A stretch of 64,000 bases of DNA from an uncultured bacterium (GCA_965369655.1 CBDUQR010000007.1:1-64000), one strand, 5' to 3'; positions 624-47,680 are shown, counted from the first letter of the stretch. Notes: a model not told the origin generated them from the sequence alone. Program-made: numbers and translations.

Positions 624-828
624 GTTTGTCGGGAATGGTCTTGCAGGAGATCGCCAGGTCACACCGACGACTCCGTCGTCGCCAAGACCCGGCGAAACTA
701 TCTTATGGGGTAGACCCTTCAAAGCTCAGGACTTGCGAGGATGTCTGCCGCCCACGATACCGGTTTACCGTGCCCGCAGGAGCTGTGCTCCTGCGCAATT
801 CGTCGGGGCACAGCCCTGACGAGCACGG
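624..828. repeat. Cluster of palindromes / REP-like mosaic
   Basis: Branched hairpin at 624-698 (GGTCTTG/CAAGACC, CGACGAC/GTCGTCG), REP-like unit at 706-755 with a 21-nt insert, inverted doublet at 768-828. Confidence 0.7.
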
Positions 829-875
829 AACTCTCACTGCGTGAGGAAATGCTGATGGATGTATACGGTGTTTTT

Positions 876-1079
876 CTACGCCAGCAGGTCGAGTATGGCG
901 TCTTGCATTCGCAGCGCAGTCTTGAGTGAGGCGATGTTAGCAGAGTAGCCGCGTTCTGAAACCATCAAGCCGACCATATCCCGTGACAAGTCGACCTTTT
1001 CTATGTCCTGCAGGTTCCTGGCGTACCTCTGCATCATTTCGGCATGATGCCTGATTCCCTGTACGGCATGAATCCTCAT
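876..1079 (-). CDS. Small protein consisting mainly of a flagellar basal-body rod/hook C-terminal domain
   Basis: VDLSRDMVGLMVSERGYSANIASLKTALRMQDAILDL matches the Flg_bbr_C pattern; RBS AGAGGAGG precedes ATG 1079. Confidence 0.7.
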   Translation of the reverse strand: MRIHAVQGIRHHAEMMQRYARNLQDIEKVDLSRDMVGLMVSERGYSANIASLKTALRMQDAILDLLA

Positions 1080-1211
1080 CGAGCCTCCTCTATTATGTTG
1101 ATTTCGGCAATCGGACCAAGACACATTATATTGGGTAGATGATAGTTCAGATTTTGATCACATAGCCTATCTGCAGCGGCAGAGAGTTGCCTCAAACATC
1201 ATCAAAAGCGG

Positions 1212-1240
1212 TTGACACGCGGGGGGAGAGTAAGTATTAT
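1212..1240 (+). promoter_or_regulatory. Sigma70-type promoter of the EF-G gene
   Basis: TTGACA-17 nt-TATTAT. Confidence 0.7.
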
Positions 1241-1287
1241 AACAACTTCGCTTTGAGGCAGTAACCTGAAGATTTGGGAGTGAATGG

Positions 1288-3372
1288 GTGAAAGAGTATA
1301 AGATTGAACAGATACGGAACCTGGCTCTATGTGGACACAACAGCAGCGGCAAGACAACGCTGGCCGAAGCCATACTCCATGTCACCGGTACAAGCAAGAG
1401 ATTCGGCAAGGTCGACGAGGGAACCTCGGTGTCCGACTTCACGGACGAGGAGATTTCTCGCAGAATATCAATCTCAGCCACCCTGCTTCACGCCGACCAC
1501 AAGGGGACCAAGTTCAATGTGATCGACCTACCCGGCTTTCCCGACCTGTTCGGCGAGACAGTCGCAGCATTGCCGGCTGTCGATCTCGCAGCAATCGTCG
1601 TGAGCGCAACTGCTGGCGTCGAAGTAATCACCGAGCAGGTAGTCAAATACTGCGATGCGCATGATTTGCCAAGAGCGTTCGTGATAAGCAAGATTGACAA
1701 GGAACATGTCGAATATCAGTCTGTCGTCGACAAGATTCAACTTGCGTTCGGCCACGCGGCCGTACCTGTACAGTTGCCGATCGGCGAGGCGCTGACATTC
1801 AAAGGCGTCGTCGATCTCGTGAGCCAGAAAGCGTTCACGTATGATGACAACGGCAAAGCGACGCCGATAGATATTCCTGACGATATGAAGGACGCTGTTC
1901 AGGCAGCAAGGGAGCAACTAATCGAGAATGTAGCTGAATCGGACGATCAACTGCTCGAAAAGTTTTTCGATTCCGGCGAGCTTACGGATGATGAAATTCG
2001 ATCAGGCATGAAGAACGCGATCCAGAACCGAACGATCATGCCGATTTTCGTCACTTCGGCCATTACCGGCGCCGGTGTGAACACATTCCTTAGTTTTGCT
2101 GCTGACTATTTCCCAACCCCCGGCGATGCTAAAGAATTCAAGGGGGTTGCTCCTGGGACTACAGACGAGAAAGTTCGCCCGATTGCCGAGGACGGCGTTC
2201 CGACCGCATACGTGTTCAAGACTGTATCCGAGGCGCATGTGGGGGAACTGTCATTCGTAAGGATATTCTCGGGCAAGCTGAGCCATGGAACCGATGTATA
2301 CAATGTTGATACCTCGACCTCGGAGAAGATTGGCCAGATATATGTCACCAACGGGAAAGAGCGAAATGAGGTCAGTGCAGTTGGAGTTGGCGACATGGCG
2401 GCTCTGGTGAAACTGCGCGACACGCACACCGGCAATGTCCTGACTGCAAAGTCTGATCAAATTGCCATGCCTCCTCTCGATTATCCGTCTCCGGTTGTTG
2501 ATCTTGGTATCAGGCCGATTGCCAAGGGTGACGAGGAGAAGATCAGTTCTGGTCTTACACGGCTTCGCGAGGAGGATCCGACCTTCATGCTGGTCGCCGA
2601 TCCTGAGTTGAAGCAGACGTTGATTCTGGCGCAGGGTGAGTTGCAGGTCGATATCCTGGTCAAGAAGCTCAAGGAGAGATTCGGTGTCGAAGTGGAACTC
2701 GTCAAGCCGAAGATTCCTTTCCGTGAGACGCTCACCGGCAAGGCAGAGGTTGTCCACAGGTACAAGAAGCAGAGCGGAGGCCGAGGGCAGTTTGGCGAGG
2801 TTCATATCCGAGTCGCCCCTCGCGCCCGCAGTGAAGGTTTCGAGTTTGTCAACTCGATCAGCGGCGGTGTAATTCCTGCGAAGTTCATTCCTTCGGTGAA
2901 AAAGGGAGTTCTCGAAGCGATGCAGCAGGGTAAGCTTTCGGGCCACCCGGTGATTGATATTCAGGTTGAGCTGTTCTACGGAAAGACACATCCAGTCGAT
3001 TCGTCGGATCAGGCGTTCAAGATGGCTGGTCTGTTCGCATTCAGAGATGCGTTCGACAGATGCAATCCTATCATGCTTGAGCCGATTTACGACATCGAGG
3101 TCCGAATCCCTGACGAGTTCACGGGAGACGTGGCCGGAGATATTTCATCGAGACGCGGCAGAATCGCCGGGATGACTCCGGACAGAGGACAGACAGTCAT
3201 CAAGGCACAAGTGCCTCTGGCCGAACTGTACAAGTACTCGACTCAACTCAAGTCAATCACGCAGGGACGCGGTCTCTACTCGAGAGAATTCTCGCGCTAC
3301 GAAGAGGTCCCCCGCGACATTCAGGAGAAGCTGGTCGCAGAATATCAGCAGGCGAAAGAAGCAGACAAATAA
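1288..3372 (+). CDS. fusA: Elongation factor G paralogue (EF-G2-like)
   Basis: GHNSSGKTT, DLPG, KKQSGGRGQFG, HPVDSS, LEPI..., STQLKSITQGRG; 694 aa; not in an rpsL-rpsG-tuf operon. Confidence 0.92.
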   Translation: MKEYKIEQIRNLALCGHNSSGKTTLAEAILHVTGTSKRFGKVDEGTSVSDFTDEEISRRISISATLLHADHKGTKFNVIDLPGFPDLFGETVAALPAVDLAAIVVSATAGVEVITEQVVKYCDAHDLPRAFVISKIDKEHVEYQSVVDKIQLAFGHAAVPVQLPIGEALTFKGVVDLVSQKAFTYDDNGKATPIDIPDDMKDAVQAAREQLIENVAESDDQLLEKFFDSGELTDDEIRSGMKNAIQNRTIMPIFVTSAITGAGVNTFLSFAADYFPTPGDAKEFKGVAPGTTDEKVRPIAEDGVPTAYVFKTVSEAHVGELSFVRIFSGKLSHGTDVYNVDTSTSEKIGQIYVTNGKERNEVSAVGVGDMAALVKLRDTHTGNVLTAKSDQIAMPPLDYPSPVVDLGIRPIAKGDEEKISSGLTRLREEDPTFMLVADPELKQTLILAQGELQVDILVKKLKERFGVEVELVKPKIPFRETLTGKAEVVHRYKKQSGGRGQFGEVHIRVAPRARSEGFEFVNSISGGVIPAKFIPSVKKGVLEAMQQGKLSGHPVIDIQVELFYGKTHPVDSSDQAFKMAGLFAFRDAFDRCNPIMLEPIYDIEVRIPDEFTGDVAGDISSRRGRIAGMTPDRGQTVIKAQVPLAELYKYSTQLKSITQGRGLYSREFSRYEEVPRDIQEKLVAEYQQAKEADK

Positions 3373-3411
3373 ATACGCTTTTGAGATATTTCGCTCACAA
3401 TAAGGCAATTC

Positions 3412-3443
3412 GGCGCGCATCCATCGGGTGCGCGTCTTGCTTT
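3412..3443 (+). terminator. Probable intrinsic terminator
   Basis: GGCGCGCATCC-atc-GGGTGCGCGTC followed by TTGCTTT. Confidence 0.5.
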
Positions 3444-3545
3444 GCGTGCGATATGGTGTGATGGTTCAAGTCTGGTAGCATACTACTTTGTGTAACAGGC
3501 AGATACGCGGTCAGATATGTTCCTTGAACAGCGTGAGAGTTTTAT

Positions 3546-3575
3546 TTGACTTGGCTTCGACGCGGGAGCTATATT
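3546..3575 (+). promoter_or_regulatory. Putative sigma70 promoter of the long operon
   Basis: TTGACT-18 nt-TATATT. Confidence 0.45.
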
Positions 3576-3592
3576 GGTGAAGTAAAGGCTGG

Positions 3593-6500
3593 TTGATACA
3601 CGCCTGGCTGTGGATGAAGGCAACTGAAATTCAGTGCGAGAGGATTGTTCTGACTGTGAGTCATAACATCACAATATCTGTGTTGGCGATAATCGCATGC
3701 TGCCTGCTTTCAGGAGCGACAGTTCATGGCTCCTGGGCGTACGATGGCGATCTCGAGAGATTCAGTGCAGATTTCTTCGATCAGAATGCGGCTGCGAGTA
3801 AAGACTTTTCGGACTTAAGAGATTCGCTCTCGATCGGAATCGTCGGCCGCACGGATCAGCACACGATCCTCTTCTCGTATCAGGATTCTACTCTCGAACC
3901 GGGCGGGGCTTTGATTCTCATTTTTCCCGATGGCTTTGAACTGACGTCGCTTCTGGAGGCAAGCTATTCCGACGATGATTCGCTTAACGTCGATCTTTCC
4001 ATAGATACGCTTATTACCGCAGGCAGCAATGTCGAGATCAGATTCGATACGACCGGTTCTGCGCCAGACAGCGGTTCGTCGATTCGAATCGCACTCGACA
4101 GTATCATCAGTTCCACAACATCAGGAGAATACTGGGTGATTGCAACGTCGGTCGACAGCTCAGGTATGCTTCTTGCCGGTCCGACCATCAGCGAGCCTTT
4201 TTCACTGGAGGCGGACAGCATAGAATCCGTAGAGATCGATCCGGATTATGTCCCGTATGTCATCGCAGGGAACACCGTCGCATTTTCCTGCGCCGCAACC
4301 GATCAATTCGACAATGCAGTCGATGATTTCGAGACACTCTGGTCAGTCGTCAACATTTCTGAAGGATATGATCCGAATGGAGTGATCTCAGATGAGGGCG
4401 TCTATCTCGGACTTCACTCAGGACCGTCCAAAGTCTTCTGCAAGGTCAGCACCGGAGTCGACACCCTGCTCGACTCTGCCATCGTAATTGTTTACCACGC
4501 CGATTTTGACCACTACACTGTTTCCGGATTTCCCGAATCTGTGCTGGCCGGTACACCTCTGACGGATTCGATTGTAGTCGCTGCCGAGGATTTATACGGA
4601 AATCTCTTGACCAATTTCTCGACGATTCTCTGGTTCAAGACCAGTGATCCAAGGGCGAGTATCTCACCAGATTCCCTCTCGCCGGATACGTTCACTCCCG
4701 GCATAGACGGAATTGAGATATACCCTGGAGCCGGTTTTGTCCTGAGAACTGCCGGGCTCCAGCAGGTGACTCTGACCGATACGGCAGGGACCTCGCTGAG
4801 TGTACCTGTGTTTGTGGAAGCTGGGGCGCCTGCATCATTCGAATTAGAAGTACCGTCACATGTCATAGCCGGGCAGGAGTTCACTGTCACTGTCACCAAC
4901 CTGAAGGATGCCGCTGACAATCTGCTCGATGCAGTTGTCGAGATAGAACTCGAGACGGACGGGATTTCACCGGGTGGCGACAATCCGCAGTTGTCATCGT
5001 TCATCGTGTCGTCGGGAAGCGGATCAGCCGGTCAGGTACTCGTGATGGCCGAGACCACTGCGGTCAGGGCGACTGTCGGCTCTGTGAGCATAGTCAGCGA
5101 CCCTGTCGTCGTAAACAATGCTGCCGCCGACATTTTCACGGTCGAAATGTCTACTCCTGAAATCGTCGGCATGCCGTTCGGCTACGCCTCGATCCATGCG
5201 TTTGATCCGTATGGAAACGCTGCAGTCGACTTTGATGCTTCGGTCGACGCCGTTACGATAACTCCTGACGCGACTGGATCGGCCGTACCGTCACGGCTCG
5301 ATACTGATTCGAGTTTTATCGACGGACTCTGTGACCTCACGCGGTTCGACTTTAAGTACTATGGTCAGGCGCGATTCCTGACTTTCGCCGTCGAGTCAGA
5401 CTCCGGCGTCTATGGCGTATCGAACATGGTGGAGATCAACTCGGCTAAGATAGAGCAGCTGGCACTCGACAAGGAGCAGTATTTCGAGGGCGAGACAGCA
5501 GTGGCGACTGTGACGATTACCAATTTCGGATCGTTCGAGACGAGAATCATCGACATATCGTTGTCGTCTTCGCAGGGTCCCCTTGCGGTTACTGCACTGA
5601 CTCCGGAGCTTCCGGATACTATCGGTGGCAACGAATCACGCGACTACGAGTTGACGACTGTTATCCCTGTGAATTTTGATCCACAGATGACCAGTTTCAG
5701 CGCAGCATTCAGCGCGTTTGCGAACCAACAGCTTATCACAGACACGAGCGGTTACCTTGATTCAGCGCGGATTCTCAGCCAGAAGAATTTGGTTTATACC
5801 GATTTGTCTCTATCACCGCAGGTAATATCCAGGGGAGAGACATACTCGTTCTTCTGCCAGGTTCAGCATATCGGTGCGGTCAACGTTCAACTCGACACCA
5901 CGAGTACAATGCAATTCATATCTGATGAGAACGATACGTTTGTAACGCGGCTGTCGAATCCGATCCCAATTCCAGCTTCCGCTCAGCCGATCACCCTGTT
6001 CTTCGAAGACAAGCAAATCGACCAGGGGTTCGCATCGGGAACGTATGAAGTGTACCTGTACCTGAGAGGGACTCAGGGGCTGGTCAACTACAGCGAAGAT
6101 ATTACGCTGACCGATTCGATTCTGATTCAGAGTCCGTCGTCGATACGATTTGTCGATGGCAGCTTCAGCCCTGAGACAGCATTCCGCGGCATGGAGATCG
6201 TGCCTGAGATCACTGTCGTGAACGATGGCGAGGCATTGCTTCAACTCGATGTCGCGCGTTCGCTCCTGAGACTCACGGCCGACGACGACGAAATCCGTTT
6301 CACAATTGACGAGACAATATCCACAGTGATCGAAGGTTCCACGGTGTTGCGGTTCATGCCGAAGACGATCAGGACTTCGTTTCCACTCACGTCGAATTCG
6401 CTCACTCTGGACCTGTTCGGCGAGGAGAACGGTCATACGCAGGACATCTCGATCGATCTCGGCGAGAATCTGATTGATTTACTTCAGCAAGCCGCCGTCA

Positions 6501-7987
6501 GGCTCGTGTCGCTGACCGCTCACGCGCCGAATATGCCGAACATCAATGCAGGCATGGAATTCTATCTCACCGCAAACGTTACAAACGAATCCGAGGAAGA
6601 ACTTGCTGATATAAGCATAAGCTTCGAGTCAGACGGGTCATCGGAATTCGAGGAGACGATGATGCTCGAAAGCCTCGGTGTCGGCGAGACGGATTCGGTC
6701 ATTCTGGAAGTGACTGCCTCGACAGAGCCGAATCCATCCGAGCTGTTCACGGCGTCAATCATCTCTGCGACGGGCGTCTCGACCGGTCAGGACGCGACTG
6801 TGGCGAGTCCGCTCGACAATACCGCAGCGGTAAACATACAGTCGGCGGGACTGATCGAACTCGACGCTCGGATCGACGGCCCCCCTGCGGCGGTCGATGG
6901 AATCCTGTCGTTTGGTCAGACGTTCCATGTCGCGGCTGAGTTTGCGAATATCGGACAGGCAAACGTCGGCGCTGGCGAGATCACGCTTTCACTGCCTGAC
7001 CCTGATTTTGATGTGGCAGATCCGTTGATTGTCTCTGCTTCTGTCGACGAAGCTATCGGTTGGACTATCACGGCTCCGCGCAAGAATGGTCAGTTCGATC
7101 TGATCGTGGAATTGACAGGGATTCCGCTCGATTCAAATTCTCGCCTTCCGGCACAGGTATCGCGCAGCGCAGATACGATTCATGTCGCTGTGGAAGAAGA
7201 GGACCTGAAGCTTCGGGTCTGGTACGAGTTCTATTCGGCTGACCTTGTCGGTTCCGGCGAACAACTCGACTTACTCAAACTCAGCTTCACGGCGGTTGCC
7301 GACAATGATGAATCTCAGATCAGGATCGATGAGGTCGCACTGATGCTGTCTGATCGAAACGGCAATGCTCTCGATGCCGCCGATCTGTTCAATTCAGCAT
7401 CGGTCGAGATCGAGGATGCGGGTCAGTATTCCGGATCCCTGACAGCCGACCAGATTGTCTTTAACATTGGCGACGTCACAGTTTCGCGCGTCGACACGCT
7501 CGATGCTGTTATCACAGTCGTGATGCGCGATGATGTTCTTTCCGAGAACTTTTTCGTGTCGATTGGCAGCAGCGGGATCGACGCGATAGATTTCACATTC
7601 AATGTCGAAGGCGTCCGCGTTGTTGTGCTCGGCAGGGGAGACGGAGCGCTGGAATCCACTGCGGGTTACGGCGTTGTTCCGGCTGGACTCGACGCATCGT
7701 TCTACAACTATCCGAACCCGTTTGCGGCGGGTGTCGAGGAGACGAACATCGTCTATTTCCTCTCTCAATCGACAGACATAACGTTCGAGATATTTACGCT
7801 CATCGGGGAGAAAGTCTTTTCTAAATCGGTTGCGGCCGGTGATGCCGGAGCGCGCGAAGGAATGAATGCGCTGATTTGGGATGGCAGGAACAGCCGGGGC
7901 GATGTGGTCAGGAACGGCGTCTACATCGCGGTGCTGTCTCTCGGCTCCGGTGGCGAAGTCCGAACGAAGATCGCTGTGGTGAAATGA
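3593..7987 (+). CDS. Large acidic secreted multi-Ig-like protein with C-terminal FlgD-Ig/T9SS-like sorting domain (start may be GTG 3656)
   Basis: Hydrophobic signal-like segment, beta-rich acidic body, C-terminus YNYPNPF...IFTLIGEKV...WDGRNSRGDVVRNGVY...KIAVVK. Confidence 0.8.
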   Translation: MIHAWLWMKATEIQCERIVLTVSHNITISVLAIIACCLLSGATVHGSWAYDGDLERFSADFFDQNAAASKDFSDLRDSLSIGIVGRTDQHTILFSYQDSTLEPGGALILIFPDGFELTSLLEASYSDDDSLNVDLSIDTLITAGSNVEIRFDTTGSAPDSGSSIRIALDSIISSTTSGEYWVIATSVDSSGMLLAGPTISEPFSLEADSIESVEIDPDYVPYVIAGNTVAFSCAATDQFDNAVDDFETLWSVVNISEGYDPNGVISDEGVYLGLHSGPSKVFCKVSTGVDTLLDSAIVIVYHADFDHYTVSGFPESVLAGTPLTDSIVVAAEDLYGNLLTNFSTILWFKTSDPRASISPDSLSPDTFTPGIDGIEIYPGAGFVLRTAGLQQVTLTDTAGTSLSVPVFVEAGAPASFELEVPSHVIAGQEFTVTVTNLKDAADNLLDAVVEIELETDGISPGGDNPQLSSFIVSSGSGSAGQVLVMAETTAVRATVGSVSIVSDPVVVNNAAADIFTVEMSTPEIVGMPFGYASIHAFDPYGNAAVDFDASVDAVTITPDATGSAVPSRLDTDSSFIDGLCDLTRFDFKYYGQARFLTFAVESDSGVYGVSNMVEINSAKIEQLALDKEQYFEGETAVATVTITNFGSFETRIIDISLSSSQGPLAVTALTPELPDTIGGNESRDYELTTVIPVNFDPQMTSFSAAFSAFANQQLITDTSGYLDSARILSQKNLVYTDLSLSPQVISRGETYSFFCQVQHIGAVNVQLDTTSTMQFISDENDTFVTRLSNPIPIPASAQPITLFFEDKQIDQGFASGTYEVYLYLRGTQGLVNYSEDITLTDSILIQSPSSIRFVDGSFSPETAFRGMEIVPEITVVNDGEALLQLDVARSLLRLTADDDEIRFTIDETISTVIEGSTVLRFMPKTIRTSFPLTSNSLTLDLFGEENGHTQDISIDLGENLIDLLQQAAVRLVSLTAHAPNMPNINAGMEFYLTANVTNESEEELADISISFESDGSSEFEETMMLESLGVGETDSVILEVTASTEPNPSELFTASIISATGVSTGQDATVASPLDNTAAVNIQSAGLIELDARIDGPPAAVDGILSFGQTFHVAAEFANIGQANVGAGEITLSLPDPDFDVADPLIVSASVDEAIGWTITAPRKNGQFDLIVELTGIPLDSNSRLPAQVSRSADTIHVAVEEEDLKLRVWYEFYSADLVGSGEQLDLLKLSFTAVADNDESQIRIDEVALMLSDRNGNALDAADLFNSASVEIEDAGQYSGSLTADQIVFNIGDVTVSRVDTLDAVITVVMRDDVLSENFFVSIGSSGIDAIDFTFNVEGVRVVVLGRGDGALESTAGYGVVPAGLDASFYNYPNPFAAGVEETNIVYFLSQSTDITFEIFTLIGEKVFSKSVAAGDAGAREGMNALIWDGRNSRGDVVRNGVYIAVLSLGSGGEVRTKIAVVK

Positions 7988-9810: not shown

Positions 9811-9945
9811 TATCATGTCCCGGGAATCCATTCACAATAAAAAGCGGCTAATTAAATCGTGGCATGGGCATCTTGCCCATGATTCACGGGCAGGATGCCC
9901 GTGCTACTACAAAAAAATATATAAACATATACCCGGGACACGACA
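9811..9945 (+). mobile_element. 135-bp MITE, copy 1, CTAA target-site duplication, internal REP doublet
   Basis: TIRs TATCATGTCCCGGG / rc TGTCGTGTCCCGGG; CTAA at 9807-9810 and 9946-9949; near-identical inverted copy at 33840-33974. Confidence 0.9.
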
Positions 9946-9962
9946 CTAAGAGAATTTATACC

Positions 9963-30523: not shown

Positions 30524-30849
30524 GCACAGGCTCAGGGCTGCAACACCTTTGTACTTGCCTGACCCAGTGGTTGCAAACCCAACGGGGCAGACAAAGAGAG
30601 TTTATCCTAAAAGTAGGTCGTGTTCCGAACCCGAGGTACGAGGGTGAGAAACACGACAATTCTATCTTGTTGTAAGAGTGTCGGGTTTCTTGCAGGCTCC
30701 ACCTGCTGCGGAACGCCGACCTACTTTGGGGCAGATGAGGACATCTGCCGCCCACAATTGCATGCTGAGATCATCACGTCGCTGTCGCTCCTCTCCCTCG
30801 GGGATCGGGATCAGCGACCGAGTGATGACGATGACACAGGCCCGTGCTT
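30522..30849. repeat. 330-bp nested palindrome mosaic (REP cluster or structured ncRNA)
   Basis: At least eight helices, including 30610-30620/30717-30727 (11 bp perfect); contains a GTAG doublet and a unit shared with 706-755. Confidence 0.7.
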
Positions 30850-33102: not shown

Positions 33103-33203
33103 GCATGATGGACGCGCATTGCCATGCTCCGCGTCTAATACTATCATCGGAAGACGTCCTGAGCTTCGAAGGATCTGCCGTGCACATAATGTGATATTCG
33201 AGT

Positions 33204-37480: not shown

Positions 37481-37529
37481 GTCATTCCGGTGCAAACCCT
37501 TCGCTCTGCTCAGGACCCGCCGGAATCCA
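37481..37529 (+). repeat. GTCATTCCGG...CCGGAATCCA palindromic repeat with 23-nt insert
   Basis: Removing 37498-37520 restores ATTCCGGT-GCAA-ACCGGAAT. Confidence 0.75.
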
Positions 37530-37612
37530 TCTTTCTTATTGTGTGCCGTGCACGAGCGCGGGTACATTGAACAATGCGCATCGACGTTGGTTATACAACA
37601 AAAGGAGTGTAC

Positions 37613-37978: not shown

Positions 37979-37996
37979 CTTGTCAAATTACCCCTC

Positions 37997-38485: not shown

Positions 38486-38622
38486 AACTGCTCCCTCTCA
38501 ATAGAATAAGGAATTCAACAGTCCTGATTTCCTCTTGTGCCAAGTCGATTAACCTTCTTGTTCAGGCATGAGTGGGACTCACCTGTCCTACTAGACTTCA
38601 TCTTAATGCAAATCCATACGAA

Positions 38623-39753: not shown

Positions 39754-39855
39754 GATTCTCTCCCGCTTATATTCTGGACAAATTGGTACAGGTCTAATAT
39801 AGCAGAATCAGTTCGTAAGTCAATGGAATCCACGATGGTTCCGCCAAAGTTTTGC

Positions 39856-39883
39856 TTGACAGCATTGTTGATTGGGGTATATT
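39856..39883 (+). promoter_or_regulatory. Putative promoter of the rpsU operon
   Basis: TTGACA-16 nt-TATATT. Confidence 0.55.
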
Positions 39884-39943
39884 CGGGAGGAAATTGTAAC
39901 GTAAAGTTATGTCCTCTTTGGCGTTGGAAGGAGGTGAATTCAT

Positions 39944-40141
39944 TTGCCAGGTGTTAGAGTTCGTGATGATGAATCGTTTGAGAAAGCTCTGAGACGTTTT
40001 AACAAGTTCTGCGAGAAAAGCGGAGTCCTGTCGGACATCAAGAAGAATCAGCATTTTGAAAAACCCTCCGACCGTAGGAAACGCAAGATAAATGCGGCGA
40101 AACGCAAAGCTCGCCGCTCGAAAATTAAACCGAGAAGATAG
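39944..40141 (+). CDS. rpsU: 30S ribosomal protein S21
   Basis: ESFEKALRRF.K..EKSG, HFEKPS; AAGGAGGTG RBS, TTG start. Confidence 0.97.
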   Translation: MPGVRVRDDESFEKALRRFNKFCEKSGVLSDIKKNQHFEKPSDRRKRKINAAKRKARRSKIKPRR

Positions 40142-40165
40142 TCGATCCACGGAGCAGGTGATCCG

Positions 40166-40609
40166 ATGAGCATCGTGGACAAAATCAATTCCGACCTGGT
40201 CGCTGCCATGAAGGGCAAAGAGCGCGACCGGGTGACCGAGTTGCGGAGCCTGAAGTCGGCGATCAAATATCGTCAGATCGACAAAGGCTCGGATCTCACG
40301 GATGATGATGTTATCCAGGTGCTTTCATCTGTTGCGAGGAAGCATAGAGACTCTATCGAGCAGTACGAGAAGGGAGGCAGGGCTGATCTCGTTGAAAGCG
40401 AGAAAGCCGAGCTTGAGATCGTAGTGCAGTATCTGCCCGAGCAGCTCGGACCCGACGAGGTCGGGAAGCTGGTCGATGAGGTGATCGAGGAGCTTGGAGT
40501 CTCGAATGCATCGGATTTCGGTGCTGTGATGAAGACTGTCATGCCGAAGGTGAAAGGGCGCGCCGACGGCAAGCTGGTCAGGGAGATAGTCACAAAAAGG
40601 CTGTCGTGA
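40166..40609 (+). CDS. yqeY: GatB/YqeY domain protein
   Basis: AAMK.K, RDSIEQY..GGR.DL, YLPEQL, GRADGK. Confidence 0.93.
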   Translation: MSIVDKINSDLVAAMKGKERDRVTELRSLKSAIKYRQIDKGSDLTDDDVIQVLSSVARKHRDSIEQYEKGGRADLVESEKAELEIVVQYLPEQLGPDEVGKLVDEVIEELGVSNASDFGAVMKTVMPKVKGRADGKLVREIVTKRLS

Positions 40610-40665
40610 GTATCAGTCGTTGATTCGACGACTGGGTTGATGATAAGAGAGCAGGGAGGCTGTGT

Positions 40666-41319
40666 ATGAACTGGTTCGATATCGCACTGGTAGCACTATT
40701 GCTCGTCACAATGAGCATCGGTTCGAAAAAGGGGCTGATCCGTGAGTTGATGGCGTTCTTCGCGCTCGTGCTGGGTGTCGTCGTCACGATCAACAACGTG
40801 GATTTCATCGCGCTGGAGGTTGCGCGGCATATCAACGCATCTCCGATCATTATCGGTACAATATCCTTCGTCGTGTTGCTCGCGGTGCTGTACGGCGTGT
40901 TCAGGCTTGCAGGATTCGTCTTCTATAAAGTGGGCGATCTGCAGAAGCTCGGAAAGCGGGATAAGATCGGCGGTGCGGTTATGGGCGCTGTCAGAGGCTG
41001 GGTTGTCCTTGGCCTTGTCCTGTTTCTGGTGACACTCCTGCCGATGCCGAGCGCGTACTACAGGGCTGTCGACGATTCAATCCTGACCGGGCCGATGATG
41101 CGGACGATGCCGCTTCTGTTCGATGGAACTGCGGCTCTGCATCCGAGGAGCGGGTCTTTTGTCGAGACGATCGAGGAGTCGGTCAGCCAGACCAATCTGG
41201 TGTTGCAGATGCATCACAAGGCGACATATTCCGATCCATCTTCCAGATTGCAGCGCCGCGACGGCCTGGACATGGTGCTGAACAATCTCGATAAGTACTT
41301 CAGGGACCAACTGCCGTAG
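40666..41319 (+). CDS. CvpA family membrane protein
   Basis: MNWFDI...G.KKGLIRE, DKIGGAVMGAVRG; four TM segments. Confidence 0.85.
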   Translation: MNWFDIALVALLLVTMSIGSKKGLIRELMAFFALVLGVVVTINNVDFIALEVARHINASPIIIGTISFVVLLAVLYGVFRLAGFVFYKVGDLQKLGKRDKIGGAVMGAVRGWVVLGLVLFLVTLLPMPSAYYRAVDDSILTGPMMRTMPLLFDGTAALHPRSGSFVETIEESVSQTNLVLQMHHKATYSDPSSRLQRRDGLDMVLNNLDKYFRDQLP

Positions 41320-41320
41320 C

Positions 41321-41410
41321 TGGCAGAATTGTAGGCCAAGCGGCCTGTCCGCTTGACACGAGCAAGAAATGTCAATCGGGCGGGCCGATTGACCTACTTC
41401 AATGGCAGAA
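41321..41410. repeat. Inverted GTAG-REP doublet (REPIN-like) flanked by an 8-bp direct repeat
   Basis: Units at 41331-41357 and rc 41371-41397; TGGCAGAA at 41321-41328 and 41403-41410. Confidence 0.8.
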
Positions 41411-41457
41411 CCGCTCCGTTTCACATCGGATTCTGCTCTACTCGACTGGAGACTCCA

Positions 41458-43215
41458 TCAGGTTTCCTGGCGCAGACGGTTGATTCTTGACAGCAGTTCT
41501 TCTATTTCGTCGTCGTCACCGGCGGCCTGCGCGTCTCGCAGTCTCGCCATATACTCGCTGAGTTGCACGTCCCTGTATACTTCGCGCAGTCTTATCATAT
41601 ACTCGGCCAGGGTAATTTCCGGGTCTCCGAACTCCTGCCCCGAGTTCATCAGTCGTGTGAGCGTCTGCCTGCTTTCGTCTGATTCAATCCTGTCGACAAG
41701 CTTCGAGAAGTAGCTATCCGGTGGACTATTGCCGATCAGGCGTATCGCGGTACGGAGAATATCTCCGAGATGATTATCGGTAAAGTCATCGGGATTGATC
41801 TCGTCAGTCACTTGTTCGATAAGATGCGGATTAGACAGCAGCAGTCTGACGATCTCCTCTTCGAGGTCATTCTTCGATGATGCGATCCTTCCTGCATATG
41901 CAGCGACCGGTCTTCCTGGCTTTTCAGGTTTGATACTGCGACTGAGAATTTCTTCGGATATTCCATACACATTGGAAATCTCTTTAAGCATGAGTGCGCG
42001 CAGGACTTCATCGGCAATCAGGCCAACCAATCGAAGTTGAGATTTCAGGAGCGCCTGCTGTCCGGCCCGGTTCATGTTTTCATACGGCGGATCGGCTGCT
42101 TCTTTGATGAAGCGGAAATAGCTGCCGGCATTCCTGATCAGTTCGGTCAGACTCTCGCTGCCCTCCCGCCTGATGAACGAATCGGGATCATCGCCGGCCG
42201 GCAGGCATGCCACTCGGACATCGATCTCGACCGCGAACAAGTGTTCGGCGCAGCGTTCGGCGGCGCTAATTCCGGCGGCGTCGGCATCGAAGAGCAATGC
42301 GACCGAATCGGCGTATCGCCTGAGAAGCAGCGCATGGTCTTTCGTAAACGATGTGCCCGAAGCCGCTACTGCGTTCCTGACGCCTGACTGGTACAGGGAG
42401 AGGAAGTCCATGTATCCCTCAACGATCAGCGCCTCCCGTCGGCTTCTGATCTCTGCGCGGGAATGGCTGAGGCCGTACAGCACTCTGCTTTTGTTGTAGA
42501 GCGGGCTGTCGGGAGAATTCATATACTTGATGCTGTCCTGTGACGACAATGCTCTCGCGCCGAAACCGATCACGCGGCGGGAGAAGTCGAATATCGGGAA
42601 CATCAGGCGTTGTCGGAAGCGATCGTAGACGCCGTCGCCCGATTCCCTGCGAATCACCAGACCGGCGTCGAGAAGTTCCTTTTCCTTGAAATCCTTCGCT
42701 CTCAGCGCAGTCAGAAGATTATCCCAGCCGTCCGGGGCATATCCGATCTGGAACTCGGCTATTGTCTCGTCATCTATGCCGCGCTTCTCAATGACGTATT
42801 CGAGCACACGTTTGCCGTCTTCCGACTGGTGCAGCATGTCGGCGAAGAAGGCCGTCGCCTGTTCGTTGGCGAAGTAGAGCCGTGCGTATCTGTCGGCGAC
42901 ACCCGGATCACGCTTCGCTTCGGGGAGCGGGATGTTCGCCCGTTTGGCGAGATACTTCACCGCATCAGGGAAAGACATCTGTTCGTGTTCCATGAGAAAC
43001 GTGAGGACATTGCCGCCTTTTCCGCAACCGAAACAGTGATATATCTGTTTGTCCTGCGACACAGAGAACGACGGCGTTTTCTCGTGATGGAAAGGGCAGA
43101 GGCAGATATGATTCCGCCCACGCTTCTTGAGAGGCAGAAACTCCATGAGCACATCGATGATGTCCGAAGCATCGCGGACCTGGTCGATGACGCTTTCTGA
43201 ATACAGCGGCGACAT
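41458..43215 (-). CDS. dnaG: DNA primase
   Basis: CPFHHEKTPSF...CFGCGKGG, DRFRQRLMFPI, KYMNSP, VEGYMD, FDADAAG, DPD; start MSPLYSES. Confidence 0.97.
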   Translation of the reverse strand: MSPLYSESVIDQVRDASDIIDVLMEFLPLKKRGRNHICLCPFHHEKTPSFSVSQDKQIYHCFGCGKGGNVLTFLMEHEQMSFPDAVKYLAKRANIPLPEAKRDPGVADRYARLYFANEQATAFFADMLHQSEDGKRVLEYVIEKRGIDDETIAEFQIGYAPDGWDNLLTALRAKDFKEKELLDAGLVIRRESGDGVYDRFRQRLMFPIFDFSRRVIGFGARALSSQDSIKYMNSPDSPLYNKSRVLYGLSHSRAEIRSRREALIVEGYMDFLSLYQSGVRNAVAASGTSFTKDHALLLRRYADSVALLFDADAAGISAAERCAEHLFAVEIDVRVACLPAGDDPDSFIRREGSESLTELIRNAGSYFRFIKEAADPPYENMNRAGQQALLKSQLRLVGLIADEVLRALMLKEISNVYGISEEILSRSIKPEKPGRPVAAYAGRIASSKNDLEEEIVRLLLSNPHLIEQVTDEINPDDFTDNHLGDILRTAIRLIGNSPPDSYFSKLVDRIESDESRQTLTRLMNSGQEFGDPEITLAEYMIRLREVYRDVQLSEYMARLRDAQAAGDDDEIEELLSRINRLRQET

Positions 43216-43308
43216 GGTATGAATATATGAGTTGGCGATTAGAGTGTCAATCACATGGGGAGAATGATTTTGGTTGCACTTGGCCGGTTGGCGCATAGAT
43301 TTAGGCCG

Positions 43309-44145
43309 ATGGAGCCGGTAGAATACATTGATGTCGACGGCATCAGGATTGCATACACATTGAGTGGCGACGGCAAACCGCTCGTGTTCCTGCACGGGTT
43401 CACATATTCGAGTTACAGCTTCAGGCACAACATACCGATTCTCTCGAAGTTCTCCCGGATGATCTGTCCCGATCTCGTTGGGCACGGTAAGTCGGACAAG
43501 CCGGGCTGGTTTGATTACAGTCTGCCGAATCAGGCGTTGCTGCTCCGCAGATTCTGCGAAGAGCTCGACCTCGAGAAAATCGATCTTGGTGGTTGCTCGA
43601 TGGGTGGTGCACTCGCTATGCAGTTCGCACTTACTTATCCGGATATCGTAGATCGCCTTATACTCATCGACTCTGCCGGGATCGATGACGACGTGAGATC
43701 GTCAGCCAGGTATCTCGACATCCCGATTCTCGGATATGTCTTCACGCTGATTGCGACTGTCCGTTTCAGGCGAAGCACGCGGTACCGTATGACTTTGGAC
43801 GAGGAACATGATAGTGAATATGACGATTATCTGGGTGAACTCGGAAGCCTGTCATCTCTTTTTGCGGGCATGCGGAACCTGCGAGCGAACAGGACATTCA
43901 GGATCGATGGGATCGAGAGAATCACGCAGAAGACACTGATCGTGTGGGGAGAAAATGACGAGCTGTTTTCTTTAGATACGGCTCGCATGATGGCAAAGAG
44001 TATTCCGAACTCCAGATTGATACTCCTGCCGGATGCGGGGCATCTTCCGAACGAGGAGAAGCCGGCTGATTTCAACCAGGTCGTGGTCGACTTCCTGCTC
44101 GATAGGATACCATGGCCGATGGATCGCGAGCGGTATCATGAATGA
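43309..44145 (+). CDS. Alpha/beta fold hydrolase
   Basis: FLHGF, DLVGHGKS, GCSMGG, WGEND, AGHLP. Confidence 0.92.
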   Translation: MEPVEYIDVDGIRIAYTLSGDGKPLVFLHGFTYSSYSFRHNIPILSKFSRMICPDLVGHGKSDKPGWFDYSLPNQALLLRRFCEELDLEKIDLGGCSMGGALAMQFALTYPDIVDRLILIDSAGIDDDVRSSARYLDIPILGYVFTLIATVRFRRSTRYRMTLDEEHDSEYDDYLGELGSLSSLFAGMRNLRANRTFRIDGIERITQKTLIVWGENDELFSLDTARMMAKSIPNSRLILLPDAGHLPNEEKPADFNQVVVDFLLDRIPWPMDRERYHE

Positions 44146-44788
44146 ACATCGAATCGAACCTGAGATCACCATGCTCTCAGTCGGAATGCTCGAGGTCAAC
44201 TGCATACTGGTCTGCGACCCGACGAGTCGTAAGGCGATTGTGGTCGATCCGGGCGACGAGGCCGAAAGAATAGCAGGCGAAACCGAACGACTTGACATTA
44301 CGGCTGAATTGATCGTCGTTACGCATGGCCATGGCGATCACATCGGCGCTGTGGATGAACTGAGAAAACTTCTCTCCGTGCCGGTTGCGACAGGCAGGAA
44401 AGACGCCGACATGTTTACCGACGCGAATCTCAATCTATCCGCCGGGCTGGGACTGAAGCTGGAACTTGCGCCCGCAGACATCCTGCTCTATGACGGCGAC
44501 AAGGTTCGGTGCGGCGATATCGAGTTCGACGTGATCGACACGCCGGGACACACTGTCGGCAGCATTTCGCTGGTGTATGGCGGGCATGCAATCGTGGGTG
44601 ATGTGATATTCCAGGGATCGATCGGTCGGACCGATCTGCCCGGCGGATCGTTCGAGACGCTGCTTTGTTCAATCAAAGAGAAAATACTGACTCTGCCGGA
44701 CGAGACAATCATCTATCCCGGTCATGGTCCGGCGACGACTGTTGGATCGGAGAGAAGGACCAATCCATTTATTGTCGGAGAATATTAA
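44138..44788 (+). CDS. MBL-fold metallo-hydrolase (glyoxalase II-like)
   Basis: THGHGDHIG, TPGHT.GS, GDVIF.GSIGRTDLPGG, YPGHG. Confidence 0.93.
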   Translation: MNEHRIEPEITMLSVGMLEVNCILVCDPTSRKAIVVDPGDEAERIAGETERLDITAELIVVTHGHGDHIGAVDELRKLLSVPVATGRKDADMFTDANLNLSAGLGLKLELAPADILLYDGDKVRCGDIEFDVIDTPGHTVGSISLVYGGHAIVGDVIFQGSIGRTDLPGGSFETLLCSIKEKILTLPDETIIYPGHGPATTVGSERRTNPFIVGEY

Positions 44789-45618
44789 TGTCATTTATGT
44801 ACCCGATGACCGACGCGCATGTTCATCCCGATTTCTCGATAGACTCGAAGGGATCGATTGAGGAATACTGCAACAGAGCGCTCGAGCTTGGGCTGGTTGA
44901 GATCATCTTCACGACTCACGTAAACACCAATCCGAACTTCCCCGACCGAAGCATGATGCTGGTGGATGGCAGGCGCGTACCAACGTCTGTCGACTCGATC
45001 AAGCGATATGCCGATGATGTCTGGAGCGCGCGCGAGAAATACTACGAAATCGGACTGATGGTAAAATGCGGCGTCGAGGTCGATTTCTTCCCTGAGATCT
45101 CCGACGAGATTCTAAGGGCGCTCGAAGATAGGTTGATCGAATACAGACTTGTGGGAGTCCACCGAATCGACGGACTTACATTTGGGAACAAGGGTGAAAC
45201 ACTCAAGCTGTATGACAGGTATGGTGTCCCGGAGCTTCTTGAAAAGTACTACGCGCTCGTGAAGCAGGCATCCACATACAGACTATTCGATTCTGTTGCG
45301 CATCTCGATTACTACAGAAGATACGCCCCGGAAGATAAGCTCGATGAAGTCATGCGAATTGATTTCGACTTCATCGATGATACTCTGGAATCGCTTGTTG
45401 AGAATGAAATCAGTATCGAAGTCAACACGTCGGCATTGAGGCATGGCCACAAGGAATACTATCCCAGTATGGCGCTTCTGAACAAAGTTCGGAAAGCGGG
45501 AGTCCTGATCCGCTACCTCGGATCGGATGCACACTCTCCCGAACATCTGGCTCACGACTTCGACAACGGCGAATTGATTGTCTATGAAACAAACGTCTAT
45601 GATTTCGAGGAAGGTTGA
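44788..45618 (+). CDS. PHP-family phosphatase (HisJ/HisK-like)
   Basis: DAHVH..FS.D, GVEVD, AHLD, EVNTS, GSDAH. Confidence 0.88.
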   Translation: MSFMYPMTDAHVHPDFSIDSKGSIEEYCNRALELGLVEIIFTTHVNTNPNFPDRSMMLVDGRRVPTSVDSIKRYADDVWSAREKYYEIGLMVKCGVEVDFFPEISDEILRALEDRLIEYRLVGVHRIDGLTFGNKGETLKLYDRYGVPELLEKYYALVKQASTYRLFDSVAHLDYYRRYAPEDKLDEVMRIDFDFIDDTLESLVENEISIEVNTSALRHGHKEYYPSMALLNKVRKAGVLIRYLGSDAHSPEHLAHDFDNGELIVYETNVYDFEEG

Positions 45619-46192
45619 GCGGTCCGCGCTGCCGCGTGACTTCTATGAACGTCCCACAAGAGAAGTCGCTCGTGATCTGATCGGGAAGATATTCGTTCGG
45701 CGCCTGAATGACATCTGGCTGAGCGGGCGAATAGTCGAAGTCGAGGCGTACATCGGCGAGGATGATCCGGCATGCCATGCTCGATTCGGTCCCACGGATC
45801 GCAATCGCATTATGTATGGCAGGGGAGGGGTTACATACGTATATTTCATTTATGGAATGTACAGCATGCTCAATTTCGTCACCGAGCCGGAAGGCCGGGC
45901 GGCTGCCGTTTTGATCAGGGGGATTGAACCAATCGAAGGGCTGGAGACAATGATGCGATTGCGAGGTTGCGACAAGAGCGCGAACCTGACGAACGGTCCG
46001 GGGAAAATCTGCCAGGCGTTTTCGCTCGACACATCGCAGTCGGGGATAGATCTTACCGGCAGCGAGATGTTTGTGACCGAAGGCGACCGTGGACGGTTCT
46101 CGATTGCGACTTCTCCTCGCATCGGAATAAAGGATGGAACCGATCGCAAGTGGCGGTTTTACATTAAGGAAAACCCGTTCGTTTCGAAATGA
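45584..46192 (+). CDS. DNA-3-methyladenine glycosylase (MPG/AAG family)
   Basis: GRIVEVEAY, D.ACH, YVYFIYGMY, AVLIRGIEP, NGPGK, RIGI; start uncertain. Confidence 0.93.
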   Translation: MKQTSMISRKVERSALPRDFYERPTREVARDLIGKIFVRRLNDIWLSGRIVEVEAYIGEDDPACHARFGPTDRNRIMYGRGGVTYVYFIYGMYSMLNFVTEPEGRAAAVLIRGIEPIEGLETMMRLRGCDKSANLTNGPGKICQAFSLDTSQSGIDLTGSEMFVTEGDRGRFSIATSPRIGIKDGTDRKWRFYIKENPFVSK

Positions 46193-46228
46193 GAATCGAA
46201 TTGGATCGGAATATAGAGGAAAAACTGA

Positions 46229-46873
46229 ATGAGTCCTGAAATTGTCCATGCACTGATGGCAATTCCCATTTTCCTGTTTTCGCTCACGGTGCATGAATTC
46301 TCTCACGGGTACATCGCCTACAAGTTCGGTGATCCGACAGCGTTCAACGCCGGACGGTTGACGTTCAACCCGCTTCCGCATATCGATCCGATGGGGGCGC
46401 TTGTGTTCATCCTTTCCGGGTTCAGGTTCGGATGGGCGAAACCTGTGCCGATAATGCCACACTACTTCAGGGATTACAAAAAAGGCATTCTCTGGACTGC
46501 CGCTGCCGGACCGATATCGAATATGATTATCGCGCTCGGATTCGGGATACTGTTCAGGTCGGTTCACGTCATGATCCCGGTCGGTCAGTTCTATGAGATC
46601 GCGTTGCGCTTTTGCGCTTACGGAGTTTTGATAAACTGCGCACTCGCGTTTTTCAATATGATCCCCCTTCCGCCGCTGGATGGCTCCAAAGTCCTGTTCG
46701 GTTTGCTGCCGCACAAGTATGATCACATTGCTATCCAGCTCGAACGAATCGGACCGTTCGGATTGATGATCCTGATCGGAATCGGTTTCCTGACCGGTCA
46801 CTCAGCTATCTGGATGATTATCGGACCATTCGTAGGATTCTTCTTCAGCTTCTTCACCGGTGTCCCGTATTAG
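46229..46873 (+). CDS. Site-2 protease (M50)
   Basis: HEFSH, GDPTA..GRLT.NP, FGWAKPVP, NMIPLPPLDG. Confidence 0.95.
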   Translation: MSPEIVHALMAIPIFLFSLTVHEFSHGYIAYKFGDPTAFNAGRLTFNPLPHIDPMGALVFILSGFRFGWAKPVPIMPHYFRDYKKGILWTAAAGPISNMIIALGFGILFRSVHVMIPVGQFYEIALRFCAYGVLINCALAFFNMIPLPPLDGSKVLFGLLPHKYDHIAIQLERIGPFGLMILIGIGFLTGHSAIWMIIGPFVGFFFSFFTGVPY

Positions 46874-46874
46874 C

Positions 46875-47624
46875 ATGACACGCTGGCTAACACTTGCAGC
46901 GAGCTTTGCGGCAGGTTTGTTGCTGCTCACAGGATGTTCTCAGACGCGAGTGTTTCACGACATTTCGGACATCGAAACGCATTCGGTCGATCTGTTAAAT
47001 CGTCACACGGAAATTGCGAGACATGAGACCACAGCACAGTTGGCACAGATGACGATCAGGTCGCCGAAACTCACAAAACGATTCAATGTTGAGATCTATC
47101 ACAGGAATGATTCGACGGCGTTCTTCTCGGGCGGGTTTGTCGGCAAGGGGAGCTTCAAGGGAATCATGTCCGGTTCAATGCTGCAATTCCTGATGATGGG
47201 CGAGAAGCAGTTCTACGATGGGCCGATGTCCGGCCTGATCCGTCCCGATCTTGGGCGCTACGGCTATGTCGCAGCGAGACTGAGATCGATCCTTGCTGGC
47301 AGGCTTCTATGTCGTCCCGATGGTGTGCCCGCTGAAGATATGTGCGCGATGTGGGAAGAAGAACTTCATGTGAGAAAAAACAAGGTGAGGAAGCTTGTTT
47401 TTCGCAGCATGCCCGACCCGATCCGGATAGAGGTCAACCTGTACAGGTTCAAAGACAAGTTCCCGTTCTATCAGATCAAGCAAATCAAGCTTGTGAACGA
47501 TGACAACGGCGCGACTATTAAGCTGAGATTTATCGAACAGCGATGCGGCCCGGTCCCGGATATCAAGTTCAGCATGCCCGATGTCTCCGGCTGGGAACGG
47601 ATAGAGTATTTCGAGTTGGATTAG
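46875..47624 (+). CDS. Hypothetical lipoprotein
   Basis: Lipobox LLTGC; ~249 aa. Confidence 0.75.
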   Translation: MTRWLTLAASFAAGLLLLTGCSQTRVFHDISDIETHSVDLLNRHTEIARHETTAQLAQMTIRSPKLTKRFNVEIYHRNDSTAFFSGGFVGKGSFKGIMSGSMLQFLMMGEKQFYDGPMSGLIRPDLGRYGYVAARLRSILAGRLLCRPDGVPAEDMCAMWEEELHVRKNKVRKLVFRSMPDPIRIEVNLYRFKDKFPFYQIKQIKLVNDDNGATIKLRFIEQRCGPVPDIKFSMPDVSGWERIEYFELD

Positions 47625-47630
47625 CAAAGC

Positions 47631-47680
47631 GTCAGGATCGCCCTTCGCAAGGCTCAGGACAGGCAGGGATCCTGACCGAC
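47631..47680 (-). repeat. REP-like hairpin (GTCAGGATC/GATCCTGAC) with 23-nt insert
   Basis: Insert CCTTCGCAAGGCTCAGGACAGGC at 47642-47664. Confidence 0.75.

Follow-up and report, generated by a model that had tools for sequence, protein, structure and literature searches.

How short hairpin repeats spread through genomes, both the repetitive extragenic palindromes (REPs) and the Ssn-related motifs (SRMs) described in 2025, is an unsolved problem. The hairpin repeats of the REP/RAYT system, on which Nunvar reported in 2010 and Ton-Hoang in 2012, are said to be handled as single-stranded DNA (ssDNA) hairpins. In Nostoc and Anabaena, the small dispersed repeats SDR1-8, reportedly described by Elhai et al. 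(2008, Genome Res 18:1484), are said to be inserted into other repeats as well. According to two papers (PMC4390886, PMC5861425), SDR5 inserts between bases 3 and 4 of the HIP1 palindrome, and the second reports that SDR-like repeats were not found outside the Nostocaceae among HIP1-rich cyanobacteria. SsnA of Neisseria meningitidis, an Ssn nuclease with an NTS/SRM hairpin repeat, is a 94-amino-acid single-domain GIY-YIG protein (Chenal et al. 2025, Nat Commun 16:2388, PMC11893778). According to that paper, SsnA binds a 28-nt hairpin repeat called NTS (CGTCATTCCCGCGMAVGCGGGAATCYRG) as ssDNA only, cuts a few nucleotides upstream of its hairpin and tolerates changes and extensions in the hairpin loop; the 3′ AT-C and the GTC tag of SRMs are critical, the ssn gene is typically flanked by the NTS repeat, and an origin of SRMs resembling that of insertion sequences (ISs) is raised as a mere hypothesis. 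Here we describe a unit of 21-24 nt, which we call the micro-unit, in a 64,000-nt stretch of DNA from an uncultured bacterium (GCA_965369655.1, CBDUQR010000007.1:1-64000). This stretch, hereafter the window, is C7:1-64000 of an assembly of 2,986,768 bp in 100 contigs with 51.8% G+C. The micro-unit sits precisely in the apex of at least 12 different families of REP/SRM hairpin, in both orientations. It is very likely a discrete, precisely bounded insertion-type element, and it is among the smallest insertion-like elements seen in bacteria. We put a probability of about 0.55 on the joint statement that the micro-unit is a miniature, non-autonomous derivative of an SRM-like hairpin found in many phyla, that this longer repeat behaves as an SRM flanking small GIY-YIG ssDNA nucleases, and that the micro-unit is inserted at hairpin apices and handled as ssDNA.

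An earlier note on the window, made from its sequence alone, had reported three micro-units interrupting hairpins and one uninterrupted hairpin of the first type. All four were found at the coordinates it gave, with every string exact, and the scans added a fourth copy and a further empty hairpin:

706-755, plus strand: filled family-A hairpin, TGGGGTAGAC ... GAGGATGTCTGCCGCCCAC, enclosing copy 1; read directly
716-736, plus strand: micro-unit copy 1, CCTTCAAAGCTCAGGACTTGC, 21 nt; read directly, an exact motif match
30727-30755, plus strand: family-A hairpin without an insert, TGGGGCAGATGAGGACATCTGCCGCCCAC, serving as empty allele of copy 1; the family scan recovers 30730-30749
33156-33172, minus strand: fourth micro-unit copy, core CCTTCGAAGCTCAGGAC
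37481-37529, plus strand: filled family-B hairpin, GTCATTCCGGTGCAAAC ... CGGAATCCA (CGGAATCC), a tetraloop hairpin with a GTCAT tag, enclosing copy 2
37498-37520, plus strand: micro-unit copy 2, CCTTCGCTCTGCTCAGGACCCGC, 23 nt, with one empty partner elsewhere in the genome
41371-41393, no strand given: empty family-E hairpin, GTCAATCGGGCGGGCCGATTGAC, from the family scan
47631-47676, plus strand: filled family-C hairpin, GTCAGGATCGC ... AGGGATCCTGAC, enclosing copy 3; read directly
47642-47664, plus strand: micro-unit copy 3, CCTTCGCAAGGCTCAGGACAGGC, 23 nt, with two empty partners

Removing the three inserts leaves the host hairpins as the note had given them. The fourth copy, absent from its list, is preceded by a family-A left arm (GTGCACGGCAGAT, 33173-33185) and lacks both a right arm and the usual tail. 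Copy 3 starts 18 nt past the stop codon of the open reading frame (ORF) at 46860-47624, and the whole family-C element around it folds at -9.5 kcal/mol (z = -2.4). Motif matches in the window came to two exact and one with two mismatches, against 0.5 expected.

Across the 2.99-Mb genome, the motif CCTTC-N4-8-CTCAGGA has 221 exact matches, compared with 3 for the same motif read backwards; with one mismatch the counts are 157 and 60. Arrays that contain one or more exact units number 208; 187 of them consist of a single unit, 18 of two, 1 of three and 2 of four, always arranged head to tail. Certain doublets recur at eight or more loci, for example those of family A in which an AAG unit precedes an AGA or AGG unit. 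When the 205 arrays with enough flank were tested for hairpin context, 146 lay between perfect stems of at least 6 bp, compared with 195 of 2,000 random places, which bears out the enrichment inside hairpins that the note had expected. Most of the other 59 are chimeras or members of these hairpin families that carry a mismatch, and only a handful resemble chance matches in genes. Left flanks of the arrays sort into 42 groups, of which the large ones are distinct stem families. Eight host families were scanned for empty and filled members; palindromic patterns were counted on both strands and the counts therefore halved, except for family H:

Family A, stem GGCAGAY: about 63 empty, 43 filled
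Family B, stem GTCATTCCGG: 10 empty, 9 filled
Family C, stem GTCAGGAGC: about 6 empty, 9 filled
Family D, stem GTCGAAACC: about 10 empty, 10 filled
Family E, stem GTCAAGCGG: about 11 empty, 10 filled
Family F, stem GTCATTCCCG: 71 empty, 32 filled
Family G, stem GTCAYGCC: about 25 empty, 15 filled
Family H, stem GGCAGAATC: 19 empty (raw count, unhalved), 6 filled

All eight families hold both empty and filled members. Further GTCAT-tagged host types are GTCATTGCGAGC and GTCATCACGAGG; the genome contains 54 hairpins of the first type and 40 of the second, which are built like the many-phyla hairpin and have an outer stem that covaries. Hosts C, D, E and G end in GACCTAC, that is, GTAG on the opposite strand. 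The note had called the hosts unrelated, which is right for their stems, but most of them share a broad world of GTAG- or GTCAT-tagged REP/SRM hairpins.

The position of the micro-unit relative to the host loop differs between families. It lies directly after the 5′ arm in family A, two bases into the loop in families C, D, E and G, and two bases past the tetraloop in families B and F, so that its offset from the 5′ arm is 0, 2 or 6 nt. In family-A hairpins the arm GGCAGAY precedes the unit (in its CCTTCG... reading) on either strand: the GGGGCAGAY side holds 29 arrays and the GTGsCGGCAGAY side nine or more. One family-A hairpin, on contig C2, has units in inverted orientation on each side of its loop. 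In five chimeric hairpins (C25:8719, C33:12314, C62:6193, C57:481 and C71:158), arms of different families are joined at the unit; such joins could reflect a template switch or loss of the DNA between adjacent units, and the one located at the end of a contig could be an assembly artefact.

Because filled and empty partners define them, the limits of the insert are fixed. An empty partner was taken to be the 10 nt left of the insert, matched exactly, directly abutting the 10 nt to its right with at most one mismatch, elsewhere in the genome, and 114 of the 205 arrays have one. At these sites the inserts start with CCTTC, and single-unit inserts are 21 nt (21 sites), 22 nt (12), 23 nt (15), 24 nt (53) or 25 nt (3) long, with one outlier of 20 nt and one of 29 nt. 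The final base of the insert equals the base preceding it at 103 of the 114 sites (97 C/C and 6 T/T). Six of the seven T-flanked sites have an insert ending in T (Fisher p = 5e-7), although five of these six belong to one host subfamily and are not independent. Nothing longer than one base is duplicated at the junction, and this duplication can equally be read as an ambiguity of one base. The note's description of its three copies, each following a C and ending in C with no longer target duplication, thus extends to the whole genome with the T/T sites added, and further filled and empty pairs and consistent boundaries were found as it had anticipated.

Several of these pairs are closely similar beyond the hairpin. 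Over 100 flank positions compared without gaps, 50 to the left and 50 to the right, fourteen filled sites agree with an empty partner at 90-99 and another ten at 80-89. In the best pair, on contigs C18 and C32, 99 of the 100 flank bases are common and the difference is exactly a 24-nt unit. The high-identity pairs belong to a longer composite repeat whose basis is the family-F hairpin; both of its sub-lineages have filled and empty members and carry different unit variants. The direction of each change, insertion or excision, is inferred. We set aside a tree of 98 family-F hairpins (71 empty and 27 filled, with 23 changes of the filled state) that had no shuffled-label control, as the flanks are largely unrelated DNA; the direct flank comparison was used in its place.

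Both the middle of the unit and its tail vary in step with the host family, and most of the roughly 200-300 copies therefore probably spread as passengers of multiplying host repeats. Where the flanking genes are co-directional, the unit shares their strand in 37 cases and lies on the opposite one in 42, and it is densest between convergent genes, on crude gene calls. No Rfam family reaches threshold in the window, and the matches below threshold, in ten related loci, are to generic hairpin (miRNA-model) entries only. Together, the lack of strand bias and the empty Rfam result argue for an element that acts at the DNA level and against an RNA element. An RNA gene or ribozyme was rejected for want of an Rfam match above threshold, and a hammerhead-like core, judged by eye, was rejected because the second GA of CUGANGA is missing. 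In the crude gene call, 43 of the 208 arrays overlap ORFs of at least 100 amino acids; these are probably mostly spurious frames across repeat clusters, and in-frame insertion in real genes is conceivable.

Within the phylum, CCTTCG-N1-5-RCTCAGGAY occurs in 183 of 285 genomes, with 0-1 matches per genome in the backwards control. The present genome is the richest, with 200 motif copies, and a genome of the same genus that is 94% complete has 0; the distribution is patchy, and whole families of the phylum have almost none. A complete genome (G037) has 12 copies, again mostly in hairpins, and its host GTCATTCTGAGC^GAAGCGAAGAATC occurs once empty and once filled with an inverted unit. An 18-nt variant of the unit is found at more than 125 places in at least ten phyla, among them Acidobacteriota, Gemmatimonadota, Verrucomicrobiota, Chloroflexota, Bacteroidota, Bacillota, Omnitrophota, Patescibacteria and Proteobacteria. 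In these places the variant belongs to a longer unit; the complement of that longer unit is (T)GTCATCCTGAGCGAAGCGAAGGATC, spelled (T)GTCAT-CCTGAGC-GAA-GCGAAGG-ATC. Inverted pairs of this many-phyla hairpin are frequent, and in some places it has a GCTCAGGATGAC tail that is stuttered. On its hairpin strand the micro-unit reads G-N4-5-T, then CCTGAG, a loop and CGAAGG, with a variable 5′ tail (GCAAAGT, GTGATAT, CGCAAGT and others). The micro-unit is thus a shortened relative of the many-phyla hairpin. At eight loci in other phyla (L052, L057, L063, L064, L066, L090, L097 and L105), the many-phyla hairpin is followed by tandem repeats of its 3′ part, a stutter of GCTCAGGATGAC plus a 5-10-nt spacer with a period of about 19-21.

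The earlier note had proposed that the minus strand of the unit folds into a hairpin with tandem G.A pairs. The pattern CCT-GA-GC-loop-GC-GA-AGG is present in the sequence, and both arms are conserved across phyla, mismatched positions included. The inner pair N7-N11 is Watson-Crick in 103 of 126 18-nt cores, compared with 74.3 expected if the two positions were independent, and the Watson-Crick cases include a C-G to T-A class. The many-phyla hairpin contains GCGAAGC, which is reportedly, from the work of Hirao and colleagues, an unusually stable DNA mini-hairpin. The sequence pattern, the conserved arms and the inner-pair covariation thus agree with the proposal, and the predicted stability, given below, does not.

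Two genes in the genome, and a set of loci in other genomes, bear on a possible link to Ssn-type nucleases. Host family F is the published NTS consensus, CGTCATTCCCGCGMAVGCGGGAATC, letter for letter, and both small GIY-YIG genes of the present genome lie beside hairpin repeats:

Contig C3:73062-73334, minus strand: gene for a 100-amino-acid GIY-YIG (Ssn-like) protein, with hairpins identical to family F/NTS on both sides
Contig C1:281335-281619, minus strand: gene for a 95-amino-acid GIY-YIG protein, with GTCATTGCGAGC-type hairpins around it and a doubly filled family-C hairpin about 200 nt downstream

Upstream of the C3 gene lie three truncated 21-nt direct repeats of the hairpin 5′ half (GTCATTYCC...GCTCTTG), and the period of this stutter equals that of the micro-unit arrays. 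The published, degenerate SRM string (HGTCWY-N0-2-YYVSBRH-N0-5-WNVSBRG-N0-2-RNCYNB) matches 80 sites in the genome, mostly in families F and B, and 21 in the backwards control; 48 of the 80 sites are GTCA(T/C)TCCCG, and empty family-B members of the GTCATTCCGG type match the string. Read by eye, the full-length many-phyla relative misses it at one position. Ten other genomes together gave 31 small GIY-YIG loci, of which 10 lie within 400 nt of a unit-type hairpin (the full-length relative) and four have one on both sides; in genome G067, a gene for a 103-amino-acid GIY-YIG protein lies between two identical direct copies of TTGTCATCCTGAGCGAAGCGAAGGATCTGTTG. The same pattern lies near 1 of 55 Y1 loci in a wider distance of 550 nt (Fisher p = 1e-4, on loci that are not fully independent). 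A tree of 29 small GIY-YIG proteins has one clade, with support 99/97, that includes both genes of the present genome together with three of the four that are flanked on both sides. The small GIY-YIG proteins of the present genome are not covered by any NCBIfam model; their nearest solved structure is the UPF0213 protein BH0048, a weak match (E = 1.6e-4), and 1704 database relatives of about 95 amino acids all carry PF01541. Together, these data make the link between Ssn and the micro-unit no more than suggestive. Among the enzymes that the note had listed as candidates, the evidence points to GIY-YIG nucleases, given the 10 loci with a nearby relative of the unit, four of them flanked on both sides, and the two host families (F and B) that are SRMs.

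The mechanism that we consider most likely would start with the unit handled as ssDNA. An Ssn-type hairpin-specific ssDNA nuclease, such as the products of the two genes in this genome, would cut beside the unit hairpin, and, as replication exposes the loop of a second hairpin as single strand, a strand one unit long would enter that loop by joining or by copying, with one junction base repeated. The loop tolerance of SsnA fits insertion at a hairpin apex. That an Ssn-type nuclease is the enzyme acting on the unit is a tentative idea, to which we give somewhat less than even odds. A broader version has cuts beside hairpins releasing unit-length strands, most readily from tandem arrays, which would be pasted into other loops; Ssn nucleases together with host ligase or polymerase would then mobilise their own hairpin repeats, with the 21-24-nt unit as the minimal substrate, and this we regard as rather unlikely.

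A number of results weigh against an apex-inserted, Ssn-handled derivative. The present genome has 0 copies of the full-length many-phyla repeat and 221 of the short one. The micro-unit flanks neither of the two local ssn genes, and the SRM string matches 0 of the 208 unit arrays on the hairpin strand; with neither the 3′ AT-C nor the GTC tag, the micro-unit may escape recognition by an Ssn. Co-occurrence is weak, with at least five units in 11 of 31 relatives that have a homologue of the C1 ssn gene and in 5 of 30 without one, a tally over 61 relatives that is uncorrected for kinship. The second-richest genome (G047, 72 units) lacks the C1 ssn clade, and another GIY-YIG clade there is flanked by units. 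To our knowledge, Ssn is known only as a nuclease, and we know of no joining activity. A DNA nearest-neighbour model gives the isolated unit a minimum free energy of 0 to -1.4 kcal/mol with z-scores of 0 or above, that is, no stable fold, and so the unit hairpin is putative; sheared G.A pairs are poorly modelled by this calculation. Independent insertions, counted as distinct combinations of host, position and orientation, may number about 15, not hundreds. No insertion event is seen directly: three public runs hold the region, but contigs of these three closely related populations end at each repeat (for example at 37509 and 47584), and none bridges a unit site. Coding DNA of a same-genus genome (G001) is 79% identical and its intergenic region cannot be aligned, so that it is too diverged for orthologous sites.

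The most serious rival needs no dedicated enzyme. A polymerase stalled in a hairpin loop could let the nascent 3′ end pair, by 1-2 nt of microhomology, beside a remote unit, copy that unit and return through the same microhomology. The junction signature that this predicts is exactly the one found, in that the insert ends in the base that precedes it at 103 of 114 sites and the base before a unit is itself C (T in the T cases). Template switching also accounts for the location in hairpin loops, the head-to-tail arrays, the lack of a linked gene and four of the chimeric hairpins (C25:8719, C33:12314, C62:6193 and C57:481). It is less at ease with the boundaries, which are the same two in a dozen unrelated hosts, with donor loop bases never copied along; such recurrent, exact limits are more precise than polymerase stalling predicts. 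The core is moreover conserved across many phyla at non-Watson-Crick positions too, which points to recognition by a protein. We therefore consider microhomology-guided switching a minority explanation, at perhaps one chance in five. A different view takes the micro-unit for an old, immobile apical module kept for a function such as protein binding, with the empty hairpins due to precise loss or to separate lineages. Unit subtypes that track the host family and a core conserved across the whole phylum would agree with this, and the BIMEs of E. coli, in which protein-binding motifs lie between palindromic units, offer a parallel. An inherited module is hard to reconcile with both orientations within one host family and with the hairpin that has inverted units on both sides, and it has to accommodate arrays of one to four tandem copies, an offset that changes among hosts, empty and filled copies with flanks up to 99% identical and a distribution that drops to 0 copies within the same genus. 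Repeated precise loss would itself need a site-specific process, and we think this view improbable.

The earlier note had favoured an HUH enzyme of the IS200/IS605 or RAYT type, and here its proposal of a minimal mobile unit that parasitises other REPs divides: the discrete unit, the filled and empty pairs, the consistent boundaries and the tandem iteration stand, and the HUH enzyme does not. In such a 'peel and paste' scheme a trans-acting Y1 enzyme would cut 3′ of the left-flank C and at the end of the unit. The genome does have four RAYT-like genes, and the REP that flanks two of them has the apex CCC-AGA-GC-GAAA-GC-GGC-GGG, the same design as the proposed unit hairpin. Oriented insertion 3′ of a fixed base without a long duplication also resembles IS200/IS605, as in IS608, which inserts in one orientation 3′ of a fixed target with no long duplication. 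However, the four RAYT-like genes are flanked by their own, different REPs, and neither they nor a Y1 domain in a long ORF of this genome are flanked by the unit. In the ten other genomes, the one Y1 locus of 55 with a unit within 550 nt has it on one side, with 0 of 55 on both sides. Y1 genes are found in 260 of the 285 genomes of the phylum and, being near-universal, do not discriminate by their presence. Genomes with close orthologues of the RAYT on contig C31 have 0-9 units, and none of these orthologues was found in G047, which is rich in units; the orthologues do not track unit counts. The unit, furthermore, has one hairpin, not two distinct ends. With adjacency and co-occurrence both negative, RAYT was rejected as the mobiliser; an HUH mobiliser is not supported, and we rate it as improbable. 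The Y1_Tnp-like stretch in the long ORF lies at C23:20496-20732 (E = 2.3e-10), within a 1072-amino-acid open frame that also resembles a DNA methyltransferase or restriction fusion. Further REP types lie beside copy 1 (window 566-600 and 770-830): GTAGCTCACCCAGAGCGCAGCGTCGGGTGAG resembles the repeats flanking the RAYT genes on C31 and C76, and CGCAGGAGCTGTGCTCCTGCG and GTCGGGGCACAGCCC resemble those flanking the RAYT gene on C9.

Whichever process moves it, the micro-unit provides more than 100 natural before-and-after pairs of a 21-24-nt unit in one genome, with two candidate nuclease genes alongside. Many breaks between contigs and many spurious small ORFs in metagenome assemblies can also be traced to the unit and its hosts. 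If Ssn were the mobiliser, the micro-unit would be the smallest known bacterial transposable unit and would give the first evidence of how SRMs, and perhaps REP-like repeats more widely, multiply. Literature searches, together with the available passages of the Ssn paper, gave no description of a 21-24-nt unit nested in REP/SRM loops, and a search by core sequence returned an unrelated paper only; the note's remark that it knew of no described mobiliser or such targeting agrees with the literature searched.

Set against known systems, the micro-unit combines features of several. Like the Ssn/NTS/SRM system, this genome has NTS-consensus hairpins (host F) around a small GIY-YIG gene, and the full-length relative of the unit shows the same repeat-gene-repeat layout around ssn-like genes. 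Unlike an SRM, the micro-unit has no GTC tag and no base after the palindrome, and is 21-24 nt long where the SRM is 28 nt; the accessible passages of PMC11893778 give nuclease activity only, with no nesting, insertion or tandem arrays. With the REP/REPIN-RAYT system (Bertels and Rainey 2011, PMC3116915) it has in common that both concern short extragenic hairpin repeats, enriched between convergent genes and handled, in the case of the micro-unit presumably, as ssDNA hairpins; several hosts in this genome carry the GTAG tag. The micro-unit itself lacks that tag, is half the size of a REP, is nested in other REPs and flanks no RAYT gene. Miniature (PATE-like) derivatives of IS200/IS605 have two different subterminal hairpins and a conserved target of 4-5 nt without duplication, whereas the micro-unit has one candidate hairpin, and its only target feature is a single C or T that is repeated at the insert end. 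The loop of a dispersed palindrome is also the target of ISs and miniature inverted-repeat elements that enter REPs, such as IS1397 and ISKpn1 (as cited in PMC3116915), but those elements measure 100 nt to more than 1 kb and have inverted ends, a duplication of at least 2 nt and a DDE transposase, none of which the micro-unit has. The BIMEs of E. coli and the neisserial intergenic mosaic elements built around dRS3 likewise combine hairpins with other short modules, but place the modules between hairpins and not within loops. For neither do we know of a description of a 21-24-nt unit with filled and empty alleles.

The nearest precedent appears to be the SDRs of Nostoc, and the micro-unit would extend this only prior report of mobile-looking repeats shorter than 30 nt to a second, unrelated phylum. 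The two share a size class of 21-27 nt, precise insertion into a palindrome and the absence of an encoded or linked enzyme. A 21-27-nt repeat lying precisely within other repeats that also exist uninterrupted is what we find here, with units of 21-25 nt and an empty partner for 114 of 205 arrays. The sequence of the SDRs is seemingly different from that of the micro-unit, and they belong to another phylum. The micro-unit targets loops in long REP/SRM hairpins, and in its case a candidate nuclease family can be named.

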